32,000 nt of DNA from Candidatus Scalindua sp. GTDB taxonomy: Bacteria > Planctomycetota > Brocadiia > Brocadiales > Scalinduaceae. The translations under genes and the position numbers were made by a program. Positions 1,033 through 24,295 of this stretch are shown here, one piece after another. The notes beneath the pieces are model-generated. The model saw nothing but the letters and a program-made list of their open reading frames with translations. It had not been told where the DNA came from and searched no databases. The stretch covers positions 3,630,001 through 3,662,000 of the forward strand of contig JALDRA010000001.1 in NCBI GenBank assembly GCA_031316235.1. Reading direction: 5' to 3'. The stretch's first letter is position 1; each line of letters opens with the position of its first letter.

Positions 1033-1557
1033 ATATGAAGAGATACACATTTCCGATCATAGTAATTTTTTAATTATTGTTTCTCTGGCAGCTTTATCAA
1101 AATTGTGCCAGCTATCTAAACCAAGAGAAGTTACTGCTGATTCTGACGCTCTACCGTTGGATTCGAGGCGAAAAAGATCTTGAAAAAACGACCTCGACCA
1201 AGCTGTTTTATATTGAAGACACTACCAGAACTAATCCTTTACTGACTGAAAGTAAATTAAGTGTTGAAATATTACGAAAGTACGCTCAAGCATTTGTAAG
1301 GGGCCAGAGCTATATGGAAAGGACCAGAAAGTCATTTATATGTGGACTTTGATTATGTAGTATAGTAATATAAACGATTTATGAATTCCCTCAATTTGGT
1401 CTTCATCTGGCAGTGGATAAGATCAGCAAATTGCACAGAACGACTCCGTCTGGTTCCCGGATAGATGCCGTTCTTTATGATTAAGATGTAATTCAAATCG
1501 TTAAGCTGTTCAACATTAGTACAGATGAGTTTTTTACGACACTATACGGAGATTAAG

Positions 1558-2397
1558 ATGCTGAAAACAATCCTAGTACCGATTGACGGATCAGATACCA
1601 GTCTGGTGGCTGTTGATTATGCAATAGAATTATCGAAGATATTCAATGCTGAGTTGATTGGCGTCTCAATTATTGATGTAAAAAGATTGGCAGGACCATT
1701 TATGAGGGATCTGGGAACAAGCATTGGTGGCATGGTACCATATGCTGATTTCCAGCAGAAAATCCGAAAGATATTGGAAGATATCGCTACAGCTGCTCTA
1801 GACGAGTTCGAAGGCAAATGTAAATCTGCAAATGTATCATTCATTCGTGAAATAAGTGAAGGCATAGTCAGTAAGGAAATCGTGAAAGCTGCTGAAAGAT
1901 GCGACATGATTTCAATGGGGATGGCCGGTGAACATGCCTTGTGGCGTGATGCGCTTTTGGGCTCAAATCTTGAATCTGTTGCCAGGCAGACACATAAACC
2001 GATAATGGTTTCTCCCGAAAAATTTAAGAAAATTTCAAAAATGCTTGTAGCTTATGACGGGAGCCTTTTTTCAAGCCAGGCCCTGACAACCGGTGCTGCG
2101 ATTGCCGAGAAAGCAGGCATTCCTCTAACCATTATCCATGTTTCTGATGATAAAGAGAAAAGTGAAAAAGTCCTTTCGCAGGCAGTAGAATCTCTCAAAG
2201 ACTATGATGTTACCTATGATACCTTAATTGAAGGCGGGGAACCCGCAAATGCCATTGTTGATACATGTAAGAAAGGCAACTTCAATCTCATGGTTATGGG
2301 AGCTTATGGTCACTCCCGGCTAAGAGAGCTTGTCCTTGGCAGTACTACAGTACAGATAATGAGAAAGGTAAAATGTCCATTGTTGCTTTGCCGGTGA
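1558..2397 (+). CDS. universal stress protein, tandem UspA domains
   Basis: There are two Usp-like halves: MLKTILVPIDGSD... and KMLVAYDGS...MGAYGHSRLRELVLGSTT (the ATP-binding G-x2-G-x9-G-S/T motif). I prefer ATG 1558, preceded by GGAG, over the ORF-track start at 1525. Confidence 0.85.
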   Translation: MLKTILVPIDGSDTSLVAVDYAIELSKIFNAELIGVSIIDVKRLAGPFMRDLGTSIGGMVPYADFQQKIRKILEDIATAALDEFEGKCKSANVSFIREISEGIVSKEIVKAAERCDMISMGMAGEHALWRDALLGSNLESVARQTHKPIMVSPEKFKKISKMLVAYDGSLFSSQALTTGAAIAEKAGIPLTIIHVSDDKEKSEKVLSQAVESLKDYDVTYDTLIEGGEPANAIVDTCKKGNFNLMVMGAYGHSRLRELVLGSTTVQIMRKVKCPLLLCR

Positions 2398-2475
2398 TGA
2401 GAGTTTTTGTTCTCGGGATTTCTTAAACTGCATTTTGTACACCCTTTTAATTTTAGATATATTCATCTCATACTG

Positions 2476-2609
2476 GATTTCGGATAAAATCCGAGATAAA
2501 ATTGAGCGAGTAAATTCCTAGGCGCTTTTTGTCCGGGGATACCTTCACCAGGATTTGGTTTCCGGTAAAACCGAAAACCAAATCGGTTTTAGTATATACA
2601 CTTGAATCT
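2476..2609 (+). repeat. double-hairpin intergenic repeat, family A, copy 1
   Basis: Aligns with 14486-14597. Hairpin A is tcggat-aaa-atccga. Hairpin B spans 2552-2584 (15-bp arms, one C/A mismatch, AAA loop) and is followed by cggttttagtatat. It carries about 27 extra nt (aattcctaggcgctttttgtccgggg) relative to copy 2. Confidence 0.85.
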
Positions 2610-2633
2610 GTTTTCTCTTAAAGGAGAAGTACT

Positions 2634-3092
2634 ATGATTAAACTGAAGAAGATCTTGTGTCCCATAGATCATTCTGACTGTTCAAAAGAGGCATTAAAGT
2701 ATGCTGTATCGTTTGCGTTGAGAGAGGAAGCATTGCTTTACTTATTACACGTAATTGATATTCGTACTTTTGATGAAAACCTGGACACTATAACAAAACA
2801 GATGCCTGATGATAAATCGATTCGTCAATTGCGTGAAAAACTTCTGGAGTGTGTACCGGAGGAAATTCGAAGTGATATGAAAATAGAAGCCATTGTGGTG
2901 CAGGGAATACCTTTTGTGGAAATTATCAGTGCGGCAAAACAACATAACGTAGATATGCTGGTACTAGGCACACATGGGAGAACAGGGCTTGCACACATTA
3001 TGCTTGGTAGTGTATCTGAAAAAGTTGTGAGAAAAGCCCCTTGTCCGGTACTGACCGTAAGACAACCAAACCATAAGTTTGTCATGCCGTAA
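2634..3092 (+). CDS. universal stress protein
   Basis: AGGAG RBS. Motifs: KKILCPIDHSDCS...LVLGTHGRTGLAHIMLGSVSEKVVRKAPCPVLTV, typical of the UspA family. Confidence 0.88.
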   Translation: MIKLKKILCPIDHSDCSKEALKYAVSFALREEALLYLLHVIDIRTFDENLDTITKQMPDDKSIRQLREKLLECVPEEIRSDMKIEAIVVQGIPFVEIISAAKQHNVDMLVLGTHGRTGLAHIMLGSVSEKVVRKAPCPVLTVRQPNHKFVMP

Positions 3093-3132
3093 ACAGCTTC
3101 CTTTTTCTTGTTTTAGCCTAAGACGGACTTCT

Positions 3133-3594
3133 ATGGTAGCGTTTCAAAAAATCTTATGTCCGGTTGATTTTTCTGAATGTTCACGTGAAGCGTTGAAGTA
3201 TGCCTTGCATCTTACAGAAATTGCACATTCCCAGTTAATCATAATTAGTATTATTGATGGAAATATTTATGAATTCGGTGTCGGAACAATCGAAAAGAAA
3301 GATTCTCGAATCAAATTGATGTCAAACCAGGAACTGGTAGACGTAATAAAAGTAAAACTGTTAGAAAGGATTCCAGAGAAGATGCGAGACAAGGTCTGCG
3401 TAATGGTAAAGTCAGGTATCCCGGATGTCGAAATTGTGAAAACTGCAAAGGAGAAGGATATTGACCTGATCGTGATGGGTACACATGGTAGGAGTGGGAT
3501 ACTGTACTTTTTGGTGGGGAGTGTAGCAGAAAAGGTTTCAAGAAAGGCCCCATGTCCTGTAATGACTGTTAAGGTCTCGCAGATTCGAATATAA
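3133..3594 (+). CDS. universal stress protein
   Basis: Paralog of the previous gene (FQKILCPVDFSECS...IVMGTHGRSGILYFLVGSVAEKVSRKAPCPVMTV). I prefer ATG 3133; the ORF-track start at 3079 overlaps the upstream gene. Confidence 0.85.
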   Translation: MVAFQKILCPVDFSECSREALKYALHLTEIAHSQLIIISIIDGNIYEFGVGTIEKKDSRIKLMSNQELVDVIKVKLLERIPEKMRDKVCVMVKSGIPDVEIVKTAKEKDIDLIVMGTHGRSGILYFLVGSVAEKVSRKAPCPVMTVKVSQIRI

Positions 3595-11640: not shown

Positions 11641-13017
11641 CTATAAATAGAGATCTCTTTCACCTTGAATCAGAGATTTTATGCAGTTTGAAGTTATTTT
11701 CCGGACCTCTGGATCTTCAATTTTCTCAAGCTCTGAGGATACGAGATTCTCAGTCTTTCGGGACAACTCTGGCTTGTGATCGAGAAGATATTCCTCGAAA
11801 GTGAGAAGAGCGTTTGGTTGACAGAGTTTTTTGATCTCTCCTGGTTTCGCAAGGCTCATAAAATTCCCGCCGGTTCTACCTGATCGATAACATGAGGTGC
11901 AGAAACTTGGGAGGAATCCCATGGAAGTCAAATCTTCTACCACTTCGGCAAGTGAACGGATGTCAGATATGCTGAACTGCCCTTGAGAATTCCCCTTACC
12001 ACTGTAACTCCCTGGACCGGTCTTTGAACCGGCCGATATCTGTGATACTCCAAGATGGAAGAGCTCATTTCTCAAGGATACCTTCTCCCTTGTTGAAAGG
12101 ATGATGCCCGTATAGGGAACGGCCAGTCTGAGAATCGCAATGATTTTTTTAAGTTCAAGATCTGAAACCCGATAGGGCGGGTGAACAGAAATATTAGAGC
12201 CGAAAGCGGGTTCAAGTCGTGGAATTGAAATAGTATGCGGGCCAACGCCAAATGTTTTCTCAAGGTGAAGTGCATGTAAAAGAAGTGCCAATACCTCGAA
12301 CCTGTAATCATAGAGGCCAAATAACGCCCCGATACCCACATCGTCTATACCGGCTCTTTGAGCATTACTGCAGGCATAAAGCCGCTTTAAATAATCAGAC
12401 TTCGGCCCACCGAGGTGCATGTTATTATACGTGCTCGAATGGTATGTTTCCTGAAATAACTGATAGGTTCCTATACCGGTATGTTTAAGCCTTTTAAAAT
12501 CCTGGATACTCATTGGTGCGACATTAACATTCAATCGCCTTATTGAGCCGTTTCCTGACTTTGTTTCATAGACGGTTTTAATAACTTCTTCTAAGTAATC
12601 GATAGTGACTGCCGGATCTTCTGCTGAAACAAGGAGTAACCGTTTGTGTCCCTGTGAGATGAGGGCCTTCGTTTCTTCCCTCACTTCTTTTGTGCTTAAA
12701 ATCCGCTTGTCACTATTTGAGGTCTCCCGGCTGAAACCACAATAAAGGCAGTTGTTAATACATCTATCTGACAAATAGAGCGGGGCAAATAATACAATGC
12801 GGTTTCCGTAAATTAAATCCTTGATCTGTCTGGCAGTTGTAAAGATCCTGTCTAATAGAATAACATCTTCACAATTAAGAAGGACGGATGCCTCTGCGGG
12901 ACTCAGGCCTTTTAATTGTAAGGACTTATTAATTATAGTCTTAACACTTTGATTGGAAGGACTTTCTGTTTTCTCCAGGATATAAGATATTTTGTCTTCG
13001 TTAATAAAGTTTTTCAT
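11641..13017 (-). CDS. hydG: HydG-type radical SAM tyrosine lyase
   Basis: CINNCLYCGF is the radical SAM CX3CX2C motif, and overall the protein resembles ThiH/HydG. The C-terminal CTSC-x22-C (CX2CX22C) motif separates HydG from ThiH. Confidence 0.8.
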   Translation of the reverse strand: MKNFINEDKISYILEKTESPSNQSVKTIINKSLQLKGLSPAEASVLLNCEDVILLDRIFTTARQIKDLIYGNRIVLFAPLYLSDRCINNCLYCGFSRETSNSDKRILSTKEVREETKALISQGHKRLLLVSAEDPAVTIDYLEEVIKTVYETKSGNGSIRRLNVNVAPMSIQDFKRLKHTGIGTYQLFQETYHSSTYNNMHLGGPKSDYLKRLYACSNAQRAGIDDVGIGALFGLYDYRFEVLALLLHALHLEKTFGVGPHTISIPRLEPAFGSNISVHPPYRVSDLELKKIIAILRLAVPYTGIILSTREKVSLRNELFHLGVSQISAGSKTGPGSYSGKGNSQGQFSISDIRSLAEVVEDLTSMGFLPSFCTSCYRSGRTGGNFMSLAKPGEIKKLCQPNALLTFEEYLLDHKPELSRKTENLVSSELEKIEDPEVRKITSNCIKSLIQGERDLYL

Positions 13018-13134: not shown

Positions 13135-14430
13135 TTAAATACCCAGGTCCGTAGGGGCCCTTCCAATACTTTTAAGTAATTTCAGCGCATCTTCTATCTG
13201 ATCCTCCACTGATACGTCTACCGTTGCCCTGTTGGGGTAAATATCGTAGAATCCAACATAATCTTTGGGCGTAAGGTTCAGCATTATTGAGTTTGCTCCC
13301 CCCATAAGGGCTTCCCTTCTTGCCTGTGAGTTAAGAGACTCCAGGGCCGTGGTTACAAGGATTTTCCCATACGGATCAATAAGTCTCAAGACAGAAAGGG
13401 CTTTGAGCACATATTCTATATCTGGTGTTTTACCGGCTGAAAGCGGGGTATCAGGATGCGGAATAAATGGACCGAACGAATACATATCACAACCCAGATC
13501 CTTTGCAAACAGAAAGTCATCGATAACGTTTTCAGGACTCTGTCCCGGAAGACCAATGAGACTTCCTGTAGCAATAATGTATCCGATGTTCTTCAAGAGC
13601 CTGATAAACCTGGTCCTCTCTTTAATGGAGGAATGAGGATGTAACGTTGAATATAGATTTTGATCTGACGTCTCAAACCTAAACAGGACACCCTTAGCTC
13701 CTGCATCAAAAGCCTTTTGATAAAAAACCTCTTCCCTTTCTCCCACACTCAGGAAAATAAAAACAGGATAATTTTCCCTTATCTCCTTGATTAGATGTAA
13801 AATATCTTCCGAACGGTAAGTATGGTCTTCACCGGATTGCAAAACGATACCCTTAAATCCGAAACGTTTTACCGCATCCGCAACAACTTCAAGAATCTCT
13901 TCGGTATCAAGACTGAATCTATTGAGGAGAGTGTTCTCCGCGTTTATACCGCAGTATGTACATCGACAGGCACAGATATTTGAGAACTCAATAATTCCAT
14001 GCACACAGCAGGCATTACCTAAAAATTTCTGCCGAATGAAGTTTGCGGCGTTGTGTAATACCGTCACTTCATCAGGATCTTCGCTTAACAGTAATTTCAA
14101 GGCTTCCTGGTCCGTTATTGACCTGCCATATGCCGCCCTGTTGATAATCTTCAGAAACTCCTTATCCACATTAGGCTTGTCATTATACAATCTGGATAAT
14201 CGTCCGTCAATTTTCTTAAGCTCAAAGAACAGCTCCCTCCACGCGTCAAGGATTTCCCCTGCAACCTTTTCATCTATTTTTTGTACAACAAACCCTCCCT
14301 GTGCATAAATATAGTCTCCCACCCGGAGCTCGTAAAAATCGTTTCTTGCCTTCCTCTCTTCTCCAAAATAATCCACTGTAATAAGGTTGCCAGCAATACT
14401 CTTTACGTTTCCGGGAATGGCGTAACACAT
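13135..14430 (-). CDS. hydE: HypC/HupF-like domain fused to a HydE-type radical SAM enzyme
   Basis: Residues 1-75 (MCYAIPGNVKSIAGNLITVDYFGEERKA...RVGDYIYAQGGFVVQKIDEKVAGEILDAW) match the HypC signature (Cys2, PG, VGD-x-V/I...GF). The remainder has IIEFSNICACRCTYCG and KGIVLQSGED, typical of HydE. Confidence 0.8.
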   Translation of the reverse strand: MCYAIPGNVKSIAGNLITVDYFGEERKARNDFYELRVGDYIYAQGGFVVQKIDEKVAGEILDAWRELFFELKKIDGRLSRLYNDKPNVDKEFLKIINRAAYGRSITDQEALKLLLSEDPDEVTVLHNAANFIRQKFLGNACCVHGIIEFSNICACRCTYCGINAENTLLNRFSLDTEEILEVVADAVKRFGFKGIVLQSGEDHTYRSEDILHLIKEIRENYPVFIFLSVGEREEVFYQKAFDAGAKGVLFRFETSDQNLYSTLHPHSSIKERTRFIRLLKNIGYIIATGSLIGLPGQSPENVIDDFLFAKDLGCDMYSFGPFIPHPDTPLSAGKTPDIEYVLKALSVLRLIDPYGKILVTTALESLNSQARREALMGGANSIMLNLTPKDYVGFYDIYPNRATVDVSVEDQIEDALKLLKSIGRAPTDLGI

Positions 14431-14485
14431 ATTTTTGCCTCAATCTGGATGCTACTAAACCACAATAATTAAAACAGATCTTAAT

Positions 14486-14597
14486 GATTTTCGGATAAAA
14501 TCCGAGATAAATCTGAGCGAGTATACCTTCACCAAGATTTGGTTTCCGGTAAAACCGGAAACCAAATCGGTTTTAGTATATTATAGATATTGAATCT
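14486..14597 (+). repeat. double-hairpin intergenic repeat, family A, copy 2
   Basis: Hairpin A is tcggat-aaa-atccga. Hairpin B (14536-14568) has perfect 15-bp arms (gatttggtttccggt / accggaaaccaaatc) and an AAA loop, followed by ggttttagtatat. It lies between the divergent hypC-hydE and thiC genes. Confidence 0.88.
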
Positions 14598-14683
14598 ACC
14601 AGCTTGGCCTGAGATTGTCTAACTTTTTCTAAACTGCAAACATGAGGGTGTATCAAGTAAATCATCATTACAGCAAAAACATT

Positions 14684-14712
14684 TTGACAATTATTGCTTA
14701 TTATCCTAGAAT
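14684..14712 (+). promoter_or_regulatory. near-consensus sigma-70 promoter for thiC
   Basis: TTGACA (14684-14689), a 17-nt spacer, then TAGAAT (14707-14712). It lies about 50 nt upstream of ATG 14765. Confidence 0.5.
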
Positions 14713-14764
14713 TTTACCATATTTTAGCCGTAATTTTACGTTAGTCAAAAAAGGGGAAGACAGA

Positions 14765-16093
14765 ATGAAGACTCAACTCGAAAGGGCAAGGGATGGTGAA
14801 ATAACGCCTCAAATGAGAGAGGCGGCACAATATGATGATGTGAGCCCTGAATTTATCCGTGAGGGTCTTGCGAAAGGTCAGATTGTAATCTATGGTAATC
14901 CGCAAAGAGAGGCACGGGTTGTTGGTATCGGGAAAGGGCTCAGAACAAAGATTAATGCGAGCATTGGGACTTCTCCGGATATAATAGACTTTGATATGGA
15001 AGTTGAAAAGGCGCTGGTTGCTGAAAAAACCGGTGCTGACACGCTGATGGAACTTTCAACGGGGGGTGATTTGGCTGAAGTGAGAAGGAGGGTTCTCGAT
15101 GCTACAAAATTAACGGTAGGAACTGTCCCGCTTTATCAGGCTGCCATAGAAACTATCCGCAAAAAAGGTTCCGTGATTCATATGGAAGCTGACTACCTGT
15201 TTGAAATTATTGAAAAGCAGGCAGCAGAGGGGATCGGCTTTATGGCTATCCATTGCGGTATTAACCTCATCACCTTGGAACGTTTAAAGAGGCAGGGATA
15301 TCGGTTTGGAGGGCTGGTAAGTAGAGGCGGCTCTTTTTTGACAGCATGGATGAACCACAATAAGAGGGAAAATCCCCTCTATGAACAGATCGACAGGCTC
15401 ATTGACATCATGAAGAAATACGATGTTATCTTAAGTCTTGGCAATGGCTTGAGGGCAGGTGCGGTACATGATAGTACCGATCGCGCCCAGATTCAGGAAT
15501 TGATCATTAACTCAGAGGTTGCAGAATATGCCCAGAAGAAGGGGGTACAGATAATTGTGGAAGGGCCCGGACACATCCCTATCGATGAAATAGAAGCAAA
15601 TGTTATCATTCAGAAACGGATGAGTAATAATGCACCGTTTTATATGCTTGGTCCCATCACAACTGATGTCGCACCCGGATATGATCATATTACATCGGCT
15701 ATCGGTGCCGCTTTGTCATCTCGATATGGTGCTGACTTTATCTGCTATGTGACGCCACCGGAACACCTTGCACTTCCGAAACCTGATGATGTAAGGGAGG
15801 GTGTCATTGCGGCCAAGATTGCTGTCCATATTGGTGATATGGTGAAACTTGGTGATAAAGCTAAAAACCGTGACTTAAAGATGGGTATTGCGAGGCGTGA
15901 TCTCGATTGGAAAACACAGTATGAGACTGCTATTACGTCTGAAAAGGCAAAACAGATAAGAGGTGAGAGGCCACCAGCGGATGATGATACCTGCACCATG
16001 TGTGGAAATGTGTGTTCATTAAAGGGTGTGAGAGAATATTACGAAGATGATTTAAATGAAAGCCGGAAGAAATCAGTTTCAACTGCATTGTGA
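14765..16093 (+). CDS. thiC: phosphomethylpyrimidine synthase (short anaerobe-type ThiC)
   Basis: AGGGGAAG RBS upstream of ATG 14765. Strong ThiC resemblance throughout (LMELSTGGD, GTVPLYQA, VEGPGHIP, FYMLGPITTD), plus the C-terminal Cys triad CTMCGNVC. The ORF-track start at 14642 adds an implausible 41-aa extension. Confidence 0.93.
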   Translation: MKTQLERARDGEITPQMREAAQYDDVSPEFIREGLAKGQIVIYGNPQREARVVGIGKGLRTKINASIGTSPDIIDFDMEVEKALVAEKTGADTLMELSTGGDLAEVRRRVLDATKLTVGTVPLYQAAIETIRKKGSVIHMEADYLFEIIEKQAAEGIGFMAIHCGINLITLERLKRQGYRFGGLVSRGGSFLTAWMNHNKRENPLYEQIDRLIDIMKKYDVILSLGNGLRAGAVHDSTDRAQIQELIINSEVAEYAQKKGVQIIVEGPGHIPIDEIEANVIIQKRMSNNAPFYMLGPITTDVAPGYDHITSAIGAALSSRYGADFICYVTPPEHLALPKPDDVREGVIAAKIAVHIGDMVKLGDKAKNRDLKMGIARRDLDWKTQYETAITSEKAKQIRGERPPADDDTCTMCGNVCSLKGVREYYEDDLNESRKKSVSTAL

Positions 16094-16924: not shown

Positions 16925-18463
16925 ATGTCCATTCTATTGTTGGAGCATCCAAGACCAGAAAATCCTAAAAGGTTTGCCGATGTGGTAAACACCCCTCTCT
17001 CCTCCTGTCTCATGACCGGATTCATTGCATCAGTTCTGAAAACTGAAAATCTTAATACTGAAGTTGTTGATGCAAATCTTCTTGGCTGGTCGTTATCGAA
17101 AACGGTAGAAGAGTTAAAAAGAAGGCATTTCAGGCTTTTGGGAGTTCATCTCATTTACCTGTGGGAGAAAACGGAAGAGGTATTTGAGATGATCTCAGAT
17201 CTGCGTAATGAAGGGATCGACGCACACATAAATCTTTATGGTCATTTTCCGACATTTGCTTATGGAGACATTCTCTTAAACTATCCATTTGTCGATTCTA
17301 TTAGTATCGGTGAACCAGAGTTCACCGTTCTGGAGCTTGCAAAAACGATTGTTACCGGCCGAGGTATACCAAAACTGCACGTAATTGATGGGCTGGCTTT
17401 TCACTCCTCCTCAAACGGAAACAGGAAGGGACAGACAATGAAAGGATCCGGCCTGATTAAGAATCATCGGTCTGATGTACGGCAGAAGACTGGAATTGTA
17501 AAATCAAATCCAAGGTCTGTTGTACCACATCTTGATACTTTTCCCTTTCCTTTCAGGTATAATTTTGAGGTGTTTAAAGAAAAGGGGATTGCTACCTATA
17601 TCCTTGGAAGCCGGGGGTGCTATGGAAAGTGCACATTTTGTTATCTTGACCGGTTTTACGGTGATGATTCTTCGTGGCGTGGGAGGAGTCCGGAAAACGT
17701 GTTTGAGGAGATCTCTGGTATGTATCGAGATTTTGGAGAAACCTATTTTTACTTCGCGGATGCGAACTTTTTCGGACCAGGGAGAAAGGGTAAGGAGCGG
17801 GCAGGTACATTTGCTCGGCTTATTATCGACCAAGGGGTAACCATTCAGTTTGGGATAGAGTGCAGAGTGAACGATATTGAAGCCGATTCACTTAACCTTC
17901 TTGTTGAAGCGGGATTGAAGGATGTATTTCTGGGCGCTGAAAGCGGGAGCCAGAATGTTCTTGACAGACTCAAAAAATTAACGACAGTTGAGGAGAACAA
18001 AAGAGCCATACGCATGCTCAGAGATTACCAAATTGAGCCAAATTATGGATTTATCATGTTTGAACCAGACTCTACTCTCCGTGATGTGAGGGAGAACTTT
18101 GAGTTTCTCAACGAAATGAAAATGTTACGCATACCCAGTGTCACGGCACATCTTCTCTATCATCAACAGACGATATTTAAAGGGATGCCTGATTTTGAGA
18201 CGAGAAAAGATGATGCCGAATCTGTTTCAAAGTTTAATTATGAGTATCGCTATCATCTGAGAGATGAGAGAGTCGCTATCTTGTCTGAAAGCGTAAATAC
18301 CTTTTGTCTTGATATCTTAAGCAGGTTGTCAGATGAGAGAGATGGGGAACATTTGAGTCAGTCATGCAGTTACGGGGAAAAGGATTCACTTTCGCAGGAA
18401 TTGAACCAGGAGCTGATCAACCATTTCGAGAAGATGTTGTCTTCTTTAGAAAAAAATAGCTAG
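16925..18463 (+). CDS. B12-binding (class B) radical SAM enzyme
   Basis: The N-terminal region of about 150 aa looks like a cobalamin-binding Rossmann fold. GCYGKCTFCY is the CX3CX2C motif. FLGAESGSQNVLDRLKK is typical of the radical SAM core. Confidence 0.8.
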   Translation: MSILLLEHPRPENPKRFADVVNTPLSSCLMTGFIASVLKTENLNTEVVDANLLGWSLSKTVEELKRRHFRLLGVHLIYLWEKTEEVFEMISDLRNEGIDAHINLYGHFPTFAYGDILLNYPFVDSISIGEPEFTVLELAKTIVTGRGIPKLHVIDGLAFHSSSNGNRKGQTMKGSGLIKNHRSDVRQKTGIVKSNPRSVVPHLDTFPFPFRYNFEVFKEKGIATYILGSRGCYGKCTFCYLDRFYGDDSSWRGRSPENVFEEISGMYRDFGETYFYFADANFFGPGRKGKERAGTFARLIIDQGVTIQFGIECRVNDIEADSLNLLVEAGLKDVFLGAESGSQNVLDRLKKLTTVEENKRAIRMLRDYQIEPNYGFIMFEPDSTLRDVRENFEFLNEMKMLRIPSVTAHLLYHQQTIFKGMPDFETRKDDAESVSKFNYEYRYHLRDERVAILSESVNTFCLDILSRLSDERDGEHLSQSCSYGEKDSLSQELNQELINHFEKMLSSLEKNS

Positions 18464-18587
18464 TGGTTGATCCAAAACTACCCATCTACTGCGTTGCTGT
18501 AATTATTTCGTAATCCTCACGTACTTGAGTACGCTCCGGTTACGAAATAATTACGCGCCTTGTATCCGGGCAGTTTTGGATCAACCA
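18464..18587. mobile_element. MITE-like element 1 (124 bp)
   Basis: Terminal inverted repeats are 18464-18482 (tggttgatccaaaactacc) and 18569-18587 (reverse complement tggttgatccaaaactgcc), matching at 18 of 19. There is a perfect internal 15-bp inverted repeat at 18499-18513 / 18540-18554. CTAG flanks both sides (18460-18463 and 18588-18591). No coding capacity. Confidence 0.7.
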
Positions 18588-18591
18588 CTAG

Positions 18592-18828
18592 CCCCAGTTT
18601 ACAAGTTATGACGAAAAACTACCAATACGTTTGTGTAACTTTTTTATATCAACAAGTTACAAATGATAGGCTTGTATTACCCTACCAACACATAAAAAGG
18701 AAAAAGGAAAAAACAGCAAACATACGTAACTATATAATTTTCAATGTGTTGCATGATGTTTCTCTAATTCTACAGGTAAGGAAAACTCTTAAAATAAGCT
18801 AAAATAGGCCGTAACTTGTAAACTGGGG
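18592..18828. mobile_element. MITE-like element 2 (237 bp, AT-rich core)
   Basis: Perfect 17-bp terminal inverted repeats ccccagtttacaagtta (18592-18608) and taacttgtaaactgggg (18812-18828). CTAG flanks both sides (18588-18591 and 18829-18832). The 80-aa ORF inside is not credible. Confidence 0.7.
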
Positions 18829-18856
18829 CTAGCGGCTTCGTCCAACACGAGAATTA

Positions 18857-18892
18857 ACTATGACCGAAAGCTGCAAGGCTTTCGGTCATAGT
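18857..18892. other. perfect 15-bp stem, 6-nt loop hairpin
   Basis: actatgaccgaaagc (18857-18871), loop tgcaag, gctttcggtcatagt (18878-18892). No U-tract follows on either strand. Confidence 0.6.
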
Positions 18893-18978
18893 GATTCCCA
18901 CCGTTATTAGGAATTTAACGGTATATTTAATGTAAAGTTTATGTCCAACCGAAGGATACCAGCAATGCAAAATAAACG

Positions 18979-20034
18979 ATGCAAATCCAGCTTTTTAACG
19001 AGTACCTGTGGCAAGAGCTAAATTCTATGACTAATTACGATAATCTTCACTATATTCATGAACTTGGTTATGGTTATTGGAAGTCACAGGTTCTTTTTGT
19101 TGCGGTGGAAATGGACGTGTTTACGCAGATTGGAGTTGGTGGTAAGAGCGGTAAGGATATCGCGAGTGAGCTTGAAACTCACCCCAGGTCAACAGAAATG
19201 CTTCTCAATGTCCTTGTATCACTTGGATTTCTTAAAAAGGTAAAGGGGATTTACAAGAATACGCCTCTTTCCAAACGCTATTTAGTGAAAGGTGAACCTC
19301 TCTATCAAGGTGACAGGATACACCACTTTCACAATTTGTGGGAACCCTGGTCGAGATTGAGCGATGCAGTCAGATCAGGGAAACCTACGGCTTTTGAGGA
19401 TGTTCAGGAGGGGGTAGATGAGCACCGATTAAGAGATTTTCTGAAATCAATGCACAATATGGCCTCGATACAGGTAGAAGAGGTGTGCAGAAAATTAAAG
19501 ATAGATGAGTATAGAAACCTCCTGGATCTTGGAGGAGGTCTGGGGACATATGCCCTAAGGTTTGCAAAGGAAAATTCAGATTTAAGGGCAACGATCTTTG
19601 ATCTTCCTGATGTCATCAAGATAACCGACGAGTATATTAGGGAATCAGGATTGACAGAAAGGGTTACGACGCAGGGAGGAAATTGTCTCAAAGATGGTTT
19701 CGGCAGGGAACGATTTGACATCATTTTCGTGTCAAATCTCTTACATGGTTACAAACCTGCTGAGAATCGAAGCATATTGAAAAAATGTTGGTATTCTTTA
19801 ATGAAAAAGGGTATAGTTGTCATTCAGGAATTTGCCTTAAATACGGGGAAAACAAGCCCTACTTTTGGCACACTGTTTGGTTTGAATATGCTGGTTGGAA
19901 CATTAGGAGGTGCGATGTACTCGGGAGATGAGATAAAAGAGTGGCTTATCAAGGTTGGTTTTAAAAAGATAAAAAAAATTGACATAAACAAAGATTCTCA
20001 TGTAATCATTGGATATAAAATGAATTGTGTTTGA
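18979..20034 (+). CDS. class I SAM-dependent O-methyltransferase with N-terminal winged-helix dimerisation domain
   Basis: LLDLGGGLGTYA is SAM motif I. The overall layout resembles the CrtF/BchU/ASMT-like Methyltransf_2 family. The start is uncertain (ATG 18979 or 19027), and neither has a strong RBS. Confidence 0.78.
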   Translation: MQIQLFNEYLWQELNSMTNYDNLHYIHELGYGYWKSQVLFVAVEMDVFTQIGVGGKSGKDIASELETHPRSTEMLLNVLVSLGFLKKVKGIYKNTPLSKRYLVKGEPLYQGDRIHHFHNLWEPWSRLSDAVRSGKPTAFEDVQEGVDEHRLRDFLKSMHNMASIQVEEVCRKLKIDEYRNLLDLGGGLGTYALRFAKENSDLRATIFDLPDVIKITDEYIRESGLTERVTTQGGNCLKDGFGRERFDIIFVSNLLHGYKPAENRSILKKCWYSLMKKGIVVIQEFALNTGKTSPTFGTLFGLNMLVGTLGGAMYSGDEIKEWLIKVGFKKIKKIDINKDSHVIIGYKMNCV

Positions 20035-21012: not shown

Positions 21013-21099
21013 GCCAGAGTGGTGGAATTGGCAGACGCGCCGGACTCAAAATCCGGTCCCCGCAAGGGGGTGTGGGTTCGATTCCCACCTCTGGCACCA
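21013..21099 (+). tRNA. tRNA-Leu (anticodon CAA), class II with long variable arm, CCA encoded
   Basis: Acceptor stem GCCAGAG / CTCTGGC. D arm GGTGGAATTGGCAGACGC. Anticodon stem CCGGA / TCCGG with loop CTCAAAA. Variable arm CCCCGCAAGGGGG. T arm GTGGGTTCGATTCCCAC. Ends in ACCA. Confidence 0.92.
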
Positions 21100-22063: not shown

Positions 22064-24295
22064 TTACTGTTTCACGAAAAACGGTTGAAATTTTTCATAT
22101 AAGGTGAGGAGTTTCTTTTTATAGTATTCTACGTTTTCATCAGGCTCTTTTTCACTCCACTGTGAGGCAAGCTTACAGTTATCAAATACCCTGACTCTGC
22201 TTTTAGTCCCGGTCACATAGAAAGAGACCTGGTCACCGGGTTGGTAATTGCGTTTTGATTGAATGGCCAATTGATATGATGCTGATGCGGTCCGCCTCTT
22301 TTTCCTTACTTTTTCAGAGTAGACGGGGAGAGAATCCTGCAGTGTTTCGGTTTTAAGAAACATTTTCTTGTCCCATTTATGATTGGTAAGTTCATGGATA
22401 TATTTCTGCAGGAGCTCTTCAACCTCTTTCTCTTTATCAGTAAGTATGAGATAAAACATCTCTTCCATGAATTTTCTCTGAAAAAGTTCCAGCCCCCTCG
22501 AACGCAGGCCTGATCCTTTAATAATCATATGATTCTCGTAATCAAGAAGTACATAATTTTTGATCTTGTAGCTGAACATTGCTTTGTACCTGCCTGCAAG
22601 CTCAAGGTTGATTCCCGCTGGCAGTGTGCTTGATAATTTCTGGATTAACTTCTCCTCATCCTCATGTGTTATGATATCTGATGGTGGCACAAAATAGATA
22701 CCGTCCGTGTCTATTTCAATTACCGTGCAGTCGTTCTCCCCAAGCCAGGAAACCATAGACCTGATGATGTCTCTTCCCTTTGCCGCTACATTGTCTGCCA
22801 CATCAAAATCACCAAAATGTCCATAGGAAAATCCAAGATACCCGTAAAAGGAATTAATAAGTATCTTGAATGTCGATTGAAGGGCATCAAAATAGATCTT
22901 CTCCGCCTTCGTTTCTGCAATGGCAGCCATCTGTTTCGCCTTCAAACGGAAATCTTTCAGATCTTCCAGTAACGATTTGAATATGTGCAGGACATCTTTT
23001 TCCGGCAGATAATTGAACGTCAGGATGATGGAAGGGTACAACGATTGAATATCGCAATAGAGTATCCTTTTAACGACACCTTGATAAAAAATATCAGTAT
23101 ATCCACCAGAATATTCTTTTGATTTGGGTAGATGCGGGATCGAGTGGTTTGCATTGATATACTCTCGTATAAGAAGCGAATCAATCTTGGTTGCATTACC
23201 TCGTATTATGATATTCTGAAAAGAATAGGGAAAGATCTGCGCCTGATAAAAAAAACTTTGGCTCAAGATCTCGCTGATAGCCCGAGTCTCTCTTACATCG
23301 TCAAGTGCATATTTCAAAAGTTCCTGATGGTTATGGTGGAAATACCAATTTATCTTTTCAGGTTTTATGTAGGTCCTTTCAGGAGGAGCAACGTTAAAAT
23401 GACTTGCTATAACCTTTAACCCGTAACTTTCCAGGTTCCGTGTGGTAACATCATACATCTGCGCGAGTAAATAGGTGTCAACAATATGGCGGCCATACAC
23501 TTCAAATTTTCTGTAGACAATTGTTCGTTCAGCAATATTGAGGCGAGATTGATGTGATTTCAAGAGTTTCCCGCCACGTCCAATTGTTAAAGGTACTTTG
23601 TGCCTTTTTGCACGTATCTCTATATAATTCAAATCAAAATTAAAGATGTTGTGGCCTTCAATTATGTCTGGATCTCTTGCATGTATCTGTTCTATCATGA
23701 GAGTAATCATCTCTTTCTCATCCAATTCTCTTCCTGAGATAGTATATTCCCACCCGCTGCTGTCAGAAAGTGTGATCACGATAATTCTATCTGCTTCTCT
23801 TTCGGGATTCGAGAAATCATATCCCTCTTCACAGTAAGTTTCAATATCAAGTTGAAGTCTCACAAGTTGATGAAAAGACATTCCCTTGAAAAGTGTTTGT
23901 CCGGTAACGAGAAGATATTGAAGAACAGGATCATTCAAATAATAATAGGGTGCATTAAAGCTCGATGATGTTGTACCGGTAGTTGTTTTTAAGTACTGTA
24001 ATAACCTTTGCAGATCTGTCCAGTTATCCAGGAATACCAGATATTGATAATATTCCTCCCCCTGGAGCTTTTTTGTATCATGCATATGGGGCCATCTGTC
24101 GAGCAATAGTCTCTCTTTTAGGAAGAGAAATGGCTTGAATGATGTAACCTTGGATGTTACTTTTCCTTCTGATCGAAAAAATATCTCCATACCCTTATTG
24201 CCATCGAATTCTACAGCCGTGATACACGGTGTGGGATTTCTGCCAAAAAGGATTTCATTTTCGTGAAAGGAAACCTTTTGAAACTTCATATCCAT
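22064..24295 (-). CDS. polB: family B DNA polymerase (Pol II-like, with 3'-5' exonuclease domain)
   Basis: Exo I is LDIETY, Exo II is GHNIFNFDLNYI, Exo III is YALDDVRET. Pol motif A is CDIQSLYPSII, motif B is KILINSFYGYLG, and motif C is IEIDTDGIYF. A thumb-like C-terminus is present. Confidence 0.9.
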   Translation of the reverse strand: MDMKFQKVSFHENEILFGRNPTPCITAVEFDGNKGMEIFFRSEGKVTSKVTSFKPFLFLKERLLLDRWPHMHDTKKLQGEEYYQYLVFLDNWTDLQRLLQYLKTTTGTTSSSFNAPYYYLNDPVLQYLLVTGQTLFKGMSFHQLVRLQLDIETYCEEGYDFSNPEREADRIIVITLSDSSGWEYTISGRELDEKEMITLMIEQIHARDPDIIEGHNIFNFDLNYIEIRAKRHKVPLTIGRGGKLLKSHQSRLNIAERTIVYRKFEVYGRHIVDTYLLAQMYDVTTRNLESYGLKVIASHFNVAPPERTYIKPEKINWYFHHNHQELLKYALDDVRETRAISEILSQSFFYQAQIFPYSFQNIIIRGNATKIDSLLIREYINANHSIPHLPKSKEYSGGYTDIFYQGVVKRILYCDIQSLYPSIILTFNYLPEKDVLHIFKSLLEDLKDFRLKAKQMAAIAETKAEKIYFDALQSTFKILINSFYGYLGFSYGHFGDFDVADNVAAKGRDIIRSMVSWLGENDCTVIEIDTDGIYFVPPSDIITHEDEEKLIQKLSSTLPAGINLELAGRYKAMFSYKIKNYVLLDYENHMIIKGSGLRSRGLELFQRKFMEEMFYLILTDKEKEVEELLQKYIHELTNHKWDKKMFLKTETLQDSLPVYSEKVRKKRRTASASYQLAIQSKRNYQPGDQVSFYVTGTKSRVRVFDNCKLASQWSEKEPDENVEYYKKKLLTLYEKFQPFFVKQ

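Follow-up and report, generated by a model that had tools for sequence, protein, structure and literature searches.

HydE and HydG, both radical S-adenosylmethionine (SAM) enzymes, are to our knowledge treated as exclusive to the maturation of [FeFe] hydrogenases. The formation of an iron synthon from tyrosine by HydG is established chemistry, yielding cyanide as well as CO, and on the canonical HydE route two such units pair into the [2Fe] precursor for HydF. For the [NiFe] hydrogenases, a 2025 review of cofactor assembly presents six Hyp proteins (HypABCDEF) as the machinery, with no mention of radical SAM or HydG, and names the anaerobic source of the CO ligand as the most pressing open question (PMC12134894). 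In HypC, C2 is essential and H51 is a possible Fe ligand on HypC-HypD whose exchange abolishes activity (PMC12134894). Here we describe a gene encoding a HypC-like domain fused to a HydE-like radical SAM enzyme, found in a 32,000-nucleotide stretch (the window) of Candidatus Scalindua sp., an anammox planctomycete (assembly GCA_031316235.1, positions 3,630,001 to 3,662,000 of the 4,149,782-bp NCBI contig JALDRA010000001.1). Judging from gene neighbourhood and homology, we propose with moderate confidence that this fusion is a two-domain maturase which, with the adjacent HydG, probably supplies the Fe-CO/CN unit of [NiFe] hydrogenases.

Several described systems share parts of this arrangement. 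Like HypC, HybG and HupF, the fusion has an N-terminal Met-Cys and an oligonucleotide/oligosaccharide-binding (OB) barrel with a C-terminal helix, and occurs near HypA and a HycI-type protease; unlike them, it has a replacement at His51 and no HypD partner gene nearby, and whereas free HypC has about 80-90 amino acids, this one is fused to a 350-residue radical SAM enzyme. With HydE of Thermotoga maritima (TmHydE; PDB 3IIZ, 7O1O) it shares the fold, the CX3CX2C motif, pocket residues and a HydG partner, but it differs from canonical HydE in having a C-x-H motif, a HypC domain and linkage to [NiFe] genes, and in lacking the auxiliary-cluster cysteines and linkage to HydF and HydA. Chlamydomonas HydEF also joins maturases in one polypeptide, although its parts are partners of one [FeFe] pathway, whereas the fusion combines modules assigned to two hydrogenase classes.

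Architecture and spread of the HypC-HydE fusion

The fusion gene occupies positions 13135-14430 of the window on the minus strand as a single uninterrupted open reading frame (ORF) of 431 amino acids. Its start is the first possible start codon past the upstream stop, with no in-frame start further upstream; a GAGG box lies 8 nt before it, and the ORF opens with ATG followed by TGT (Met1-Cys2). The next gene downstream, co-directional and separated by a 117 bp gap, is hydG. The elements of this gene pair are:

14197..14430, minus strand: HypC-like domain, residues 1-78 (Pfam PF01455, PDB 2Z1C, AlphaFold2 model, alignments)
14425-14427, minus strand: Cys2 codon (translation)
13135..14196, minus strand: HydE-like radical SAM triosephosphate isomerase (TIM) barrel and BATS region, residues 79-431 plus stop (TIGR03956, TmHydE, Foldseek)
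13999..14007, minus strand: clade-specific C142-V-H144 on barrel strand beta1 (alignment, translation)
13951..13974, minus strand: radical SAM motif CX3CX2C (CACRCTYC; C153, C157, C160) (translation, alignment)
11641..13017, minus strand: hydG, tyrosine-lyase radical SAM enzyme (TIGR03955, CX2CX22C motif)

The preliminary description of this DNA, made without database searches, had recognized a HypC/HupF segment with Cys2 and an OB fold, followed by a HydE-like radical SAM part. Both halves were borne out, the radical SAM part being closest to HydE and not to BioB or PylB, and the motifs it had picked out (MCYAIPGNV, VGDYIYAQGGF, IIEFSNICACRCTYCG and LQSGED) are all present in the ORF. HupF_HypC (PF01455) matches residues 1-64 of the fusion with 50.6 bits (E 2.1e-13; cut-off 28.5), and a PDB sequence search aligned residues 1-67 with HypC of Thermococcus kodakarensis (2Z1C, E 2.3e-11); the NCBIfam HypC model TIGR00074 scored 43-47.5 bits, slightly below its cut-off of 48. 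Further along, Pfam places Radical_SAM at residues 147-306 and BATS at 322-402, the top NCBIfam model is TIGR03956 HydE (260.1 bits; cut-off 254.6), and residues 85-426 match TmHydE in the PDB search (E 1.9e-65). PylB (127.7 bits), BioB (83) and HmdB (68.7) fell far under their cut-offs, and these assignments were rejected on scores and fold.

An AlphaFold2 model built with 74 homologues has a mean predicted local distance difference test score (pLDDT) of 94.7 and a predicted template modelling score (pTM) of 0.92. Its N-terminal part contains the five-stranded OB barrel and C-terminal helix expected of HypC/HupF (strands 7-13, 16-21, 24-29, 40-44 and 47-52, helix 54-78; block pLDDT 82-96), with the TIM barrel after it. 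In Foldseek comparisons the modelled barrel resembles TmHydE 3IIZ (TMt 0.92, root-mean-square deviation 1.6 A, 37% identity) more closely than PylB (0.86, 26% identity).

The explanation that an assembly error or frameshift merged separate hypC and hydE genes, which the preliminary description had raised against its own reading, found nothing in its favour; it is refuted and retains negligible probability. An independent Logan assembly of run SRR28338162 contains a contig that encodes the identical 431-aa protein found on the NCBI contig. Among the best 120 matches, both domains are present in all full-length proteins (>110, from many phyla), with homologues at ~50% identity from Omnitrophota, Margulisiibacteriota, Nitrospirota, Aenigmarchaeota and Altiarchaeota. 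The confident two-domain model also argues against an artefact, as does a scan by pattern over 185,579 species genomes, which found relatives in about 400, distributed over Scalinduaceae, Omnitrophota, Margulisiibacteriota, Elusimicrobia, Spirochaetota, the Candidate Phyla Radiation (CPR) and DPANN archaea. In an alignment of 74 sequences M1, C2, Y3, I5, P6 and G7 never vary. The HydE-like domain ends in an invariant C-terminal GRAPTDLG. In some genomes HydG has joined the same polypeptide: triple HypC-HydE-HydG fusions of 921 aa (locus L044), 906 aa (P0121) and 881 aa (P0133) were found. In the two loci read for such genes, that of L044 (10001-12766, on a closed Omnitrophota chromosome) directly follows a group-4 operon, a protease gene and HypA, and that of L088 (10001-12646) lies within a 3b gene cluster. 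We conclude that the architecture is genuine, that it is widespread, and that it is strongly constrained. Current annotations call these proteins HydE, HypC or biotin synthase.

A sister clade of canonical HydE with altered residues

A neighbour-joining tree built from 159 radical SAM domain sequences groups all 38 HypC-bearing tips in a single 44-tip clade, whose remaining six members are fragments or unfused forms; the clade has 72% bootstrap support and its core 83%. One genome carries both types. Locus L074 encodes a canonical HydF-HydG-HydE set, whose HydE (366 aa, 359.6 bits with TIGR03956) lies outside the fusion clade, and separately a fusion that follows a 3b [NiFe] operon, a protease gene and HypA and that scores 227.6 bits, under the TIGR03956 cut-off of 254.6. 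Across fusion-clade relatives this model gave 227.6, 235.2, 254.8 and 273.4 bits. When 1.84 billion representatives were searched exhaustively, fusions scored 466 to 258 bits and canonical ~350-aa proteins from 293 bits downward. By its sequence, we read the radical SAM domain, whose nearest family is HydE, as a separate clade that is sister to the canonical enzymes and not as an ordinary member.

The two groups have much of the active site in common. The cluster cysteines C153, C157 and C160 of the CX3CX2C motif are invariant in 74 homologues and align with C63, C67 and C70 of TmHydE, and Q198, E201, E253, T254, R272, M316 and M383 are likewise common to the fusion clade and canonical HydE. 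In the alignment, Q198, E253, T254, M316 and M383 correspond to Q107, E161, T162, M224 and M291 of TmHydE. In TmHydE, Q107, R159, E161, T162, T268/T269, M224 and M291 have roles in binding the HydG product; titles of TmHydE entries in the PDB name complex-B and Fe(CO)2CN species as bound.

Other positions set the fusions apart. C142 and H144 are each conserved in 98% of 45 fusion-clade sequences, whereas canonical HydE has H, Y or F and R at these positions (R in 90% of 115 sequences), a change from H-x-R to C-x-H that makes the pair a candidate extra metal or ligand site. The auxiliary-cluster cysteines of TmHydE are missing from the fusion in the alignment. In the HypC part, the residue corresponding to His51 (Escherichia coli numbering) is Gln44 in the window; all fused HypC domains keep Cys2 and none keeps His51, with Gln in the core family and Tyr or Thr in distant fusions, while a free HypC encoded in L086 retains it.

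N-terminal extensions of another kind also occur. Canonical-type HydE homologues of ~440 aa carry a non-HypC extension of 70-120 residues (P0147, P0152, P0154, P0173, P0186 and P0231, and L098 9202-10515).

Linkage to [NiFe] hydrogenase operons and HydG

We examined the genomic context in 80 genome loci with 10-kb flanks, drawn from the about 400 relatives, by clustering 1,341 neighbouring proteins and confirming families with Pfam and NCBIfam. Counting a large subunit, a HycI-type protease or HypA as a [NiFe] marker, 52 of 79 loci have at least one no more than 10 kb from the fusion. Individual genes were found within this distance as follows:

44/79 loci: [NiFe] large subunit
42/79 loci: HycI-type protease
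34/79 loci: HypA
46/77 loci: HydG-like gene
5 loci: [FeFe] HydA
1 locus: HydF

The usual gene order is beta-gamma-delta-alpha-HycI-HypA-fusion-Rex-HydG, with Rex not always present. Recurrent same-strand upstream neighbours are Fer4_22 beta, FAD/NAD gamma, Oxidored_q6 small and NiFeSe_Hases large subunits; the large subunit contains RxCGxC...DPCxxCxxH, and its best NCBIfam match is sulfhydrogenase alpha. It is followed by a HycI-type endopeptidase and HypA, then, after a median gap of 36 bp, by the fusion, with a Rex-type regulator and HydG downstream. In some loci a group-4 Mbh/Mrp-like operon takes the same place, and in Scalindua the operons are of 3b or 3c type. The HypA beside the fusion is usually ~80 aa long (L043 9741-9986 and L016 9743-9985, for example) and consists of the N-terminal nickel-binding half only (profile positions 1-70 of 112), without the zinc-finger half. 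Variants include HypA-HypB-fusion (L033), cytochrome b-HycI-HypA-HypB-fusion-HydG (L089), free HypC-fusion-HydG in convergent orientation to a 3b operon (L086), and an unfused member of the fusion's radical SAM clade directly between the [NiFe] large-subunit gene and HydG (L087). The fusion thus holds the HypC position in [NiFe]-hydrogenase and hyp operons.

HypD, HypE and HypF gave zero matches within 10 kb in any of the ~80 loci when searched with E. coli queries by phmmer and tblastn; the same query set recovered 35 HycI, 51 HycE, 26 HypA and 1 HypB proteins. This bears on the alternative that HydG and the fusion supply the CO ligand only, loading Fe-CO on the fused HypC domain, while HypD, HypE and HypF encoded elsewhere add the two cyanides. 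Such a division of labour would answer to the question of where CO comes from under anaerobic conditions (PMC12134894), a free-standing, His51-bearing HypC is indeed present beside the fusion in L086, and the search for HypD, HypE and HypF covered only these loci. Against it, no HypD, HypE or HypF gene accompanies the HypA, HypB and HycI genes that do occur there, and the fused HypC domains are without the residue implicated in the HypC-HypD iron site. HydG moreover produces cyanide too. On balance we consider a CO-only role rather unlikely.

The same counts weigh on a second alternative, that the fusion is no more than the HydE with which the organism matures an [FeFe] H-cluster, its HypC-like domain being an accessory carrier for the synthon from HydG or the product of HydE. 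Database annotation, the window protein's score slightly over the TIGR03956 cut-off, the adjacent HydG and the retention of HydE fold and pocket residues all fit this explanation. Five loci (L027, L038, L056, L058 and L062) also have a HydABC-type HydA near the fusion, and for a similar neighbourhood in serpentinite Actinobacteria, with 3b, HydABC, hydEFG, hycI and hypA, hydE was taken as an [FeFe] maturase (PMC7325909). Yet HydF in one of ~80 loci and HydA in five stand against [NiFe] markers in 52, the fusion sits at the HypC position in hyp operons, and its clade is distinct, with relatives at 227.6 and 235.2 bits scoring under the HydE cut-off. The separate canonical HydE adjoining HydF in L074, and reports of group 3b/4 [NiFe] hydrogenases in anammox genomes, also count against a plain HydE, which we judge quite unlikely. 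As a control, the canonical HydE P0154 lies in a Rex-NuoE-NuoF-HydA-TM1266-Lyase-HydF-HydG-HydE arrangement with no [NiFe] genes.

In the five HydABC loci, HydABC comes after both the [NiFe] operon and the fusion, accompanied by NuoE/NuoF-like subunits and a histidine kinase. HydG sits beyond the HydABC genes in L038 and L058, and none was found in the 10-kb flanks of L027, L056 and L062. Since HydABC follows the fusion in these loci, HydG may be shared there between [NiFe] and [FeFe] maturation.

The hydG of the window is assigned to its family by TIGR03955 with 502 bits (cut-off 312.15), and its C-terminal auxiliary-cluster motif CX2CX22C is intact (SFCTSCYRSGRTGGNFMSLAKPGEIKKLC). The HydG proteins of fourteen other loci (L024, L026, L029, L039, L042, L044, L050, L051, L053, L054, L068, L071, L074 and L075) have a second C-terminal cysteine motif, CTAGYRCGRTGEC(I/R)M...(F/L)C, and not CX2CX22C.

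Upstream of the fusion gene, the divergent neighbour is thiC (Pfam), which gives some support to a third alternative, in which the two radical SAM genes would belong to a pathway for thiamine or some other cofactor, in a ThiH-, BioB- or PylB-like role; HydG and ThiH are related tyrosine lyases, and ThiH scores 292 bits on hydG. That score is below the ThiH cut-off of 380, whereas the HydG score far exceeds its own and the HydG-specific CX2CX22C domain is present. In a full comparison, the Scalindua loci L008 and L016 have only the fusion and hydG in common with the window, not thiC. With PylB, BioB and HmdB scoring far under their cut-offs on the fusion, we disfavour this explanation as very improbable.

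The window genome has a [NiFe] hydrogenase of its own. A single-sequence search found a group 3b large subunit (P0409; runs SRR28338161/2), 83% identical to that of L008, elsewhere on the 4,149,782-bp contig, in an operon ordered beta-gamma-delta-alpha-HycI-response regulator-histidine kinase (L095 1164-7706), with no hyp genes in the 4 kb before it or the 10 kb after it. Several other Scalindua genomes have the 3b operon just upstream of fusion-HydG, and we therefore regard the window as a rearranged version of that arrangement.

The Pfam match of thiC begins at residue 44 of the listed ORF, so its true start is probably near 14765 and not at the listed 14642. No thiamine pyrophosphate riboswitch was found upstream of thiC (14431-14765) at the Rfam gathering score. 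An inverted repeat in the divergent intergenic region may be an operator or a hairpin. Further features of the window are:

14536..14568, no strand: perfect 15-nt inverted repeat with a 3-nt spacer (GATTTGGTTTCCGGT / ACCGGAAACCAAATC), in the fusion-thiC divergent intergenic region (repeat search)
1525-3594, plus strand: three tandem universal-stress-protein genes
16925-20034, plus strand: 512-aa radical SAM gene, then O-methyltransferase gene
21013-21096, plus strand: tRNA
22064-24295, minus strand: family-B DNA polymerase gene

By family, the other genes comprise three Usp, UDG, STAS-PilZ, HAD, polysaccharide export, GlmU-like, PGM, LolA, the radical SAM and O-methyltransferase pair, SurA-like, PolB, M20 peptidase and FloA/NfeD.

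A candidate route to the Fe-CO/CN unit of [NiFe] hydrogenases

The preliminary description had suggested a hybrid route in which an Fe-CO/CN species made by a radical SAM enzyme is passed to a HypC-type carrier. The adjacent HydG and the HypC slot in [NiFe] operons lend this idea support, with the hand-off itself inferred. The data show the architecture, how well it is conserved, its separate clade and its link to [NiFe] operons; we likewise infer every chemical step of the scheme that follows, as well as whether it would replace HypD, HypE and HypF or supplement them. HydG would cleave tyrosine and assemble the synthon, Fe(CO)x(CN)-cysteine, at the cluster in its C-terminal part, as its family and the intact CX2CX22C motif suggest. 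The HydE-like barrel would then take up the synthon, and a 5'-deoxyadenosyl radical would remove the cysteine scaffold, consistent with the conserved HydE pocket residues. Where canonical HydE would pair two units, a mononuclear Fe(CO)(CN) fragment might here be caught by Cys2 of the tethered HypC domain, perhaps aided by the clade-specific Cys142 and His144 of the barrel. From the HypC domain the fragment would pass to the apo large subunit, in the manner of free HypC, and HypA (with HypB where present) and the HycI-type protease would complete maturation. A scaffold that works without HypD would agree with the missing His51 and with the lack of a HypD gene close by.

Compared with the HypC-HypD route and its partners HypE and HypF, the scheme keeps a presumed Fe-CO/CN unit on the N-terminal cysteine of HypC, destined for the large subunit. 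It differs in the origin of the ligands, which would come from tyrosine by radical SAM chemistry and not from carbamoyl phosphate via HypF and HypE, and in the scaffold partner, which would be a HydE-like barrel and not the [4Fe-4S] protein HypD. HypX similarly offers an accessory route that gives a diatomic ligand to HypC-bound iron, but it depends on formyltetrahydrofolate and coenzyme A, is a system of aerobes, and is unrelated in fold and chemistry, whereas the fusion lineages are anaerobes.

Several observations weigh against a role of the fusion in supplying the [NiFe] site. Its function is derived from gene neighbourhood and homology. The absence of hypD, hypE and hypF and the rarity of hydF and hydA were established within 10 kb of the fusion, and the tree is neighbour-joining only, with moderate support. 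HydG delivers two CO and one CN per Fe, whereas the [NiFe] site holds one CO and two CN. There is no [NiFe] marker in reach in 27 of the 79 loci, many of which are short contigs, and no hydrogenase-related gene beyond the fusion and hydG in the 32-kb window. Finally, the HydABC-type [FeFe] hydrogenase lies only 3-5 genes downstream in L027, L038, L056, L058 and L062, and the fusion may have a role in [FeFe] maturation there.

If the fusion and HydG do supply the Fe-CO/CN unit, they might together form a complete, tyrosine-fed pathway for the [NiFe] Fe(CO)(CN)2 unit, independent of HypD, HypE and HypF; we put this forward tentatively, as a possibility on the doubtful side. That such a pathway would serve anammox Scalinduaceae, Omnitrophota, Margulisiibacteriota, Elusimicrobia, CPR bacteria and DPANN archaea alike is, taken as one claim, just as speculative.

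In the open-access literature we found neither a HypC-HydE fusion nor a [NiFe] route linked to HydG described, though an earlier account may exist elsewhere; a 2024 paper in Cell on [FeFe] hydrogenases of archaea, which used TIGR03956 to screen for HydE, makes no mention of HypC. New here is the setting of the fusion and HydG in group 3b, 3c and 4 [NiFe] operons of many phyla. The finding makes a long-standing question directly testable, and the compact gene set could serve the heterologous production of [NiFe] hydrogenases. The presence of HydE or HydG in metagenomic surveys is no safe evidence of [FeFe] maturation. Fusion and HydG constitute a testable candidate for a second route, in which tyrosine-derived CO and CN would be delivered via a tethered HypC domain. 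If true, the HypD-, HypE- and HypF-independent pathway would explain where these organisms obtain the CO ligand without oxygen, and the [FeFe] and [NiFe] maturation systems would share radical SAM machinery.

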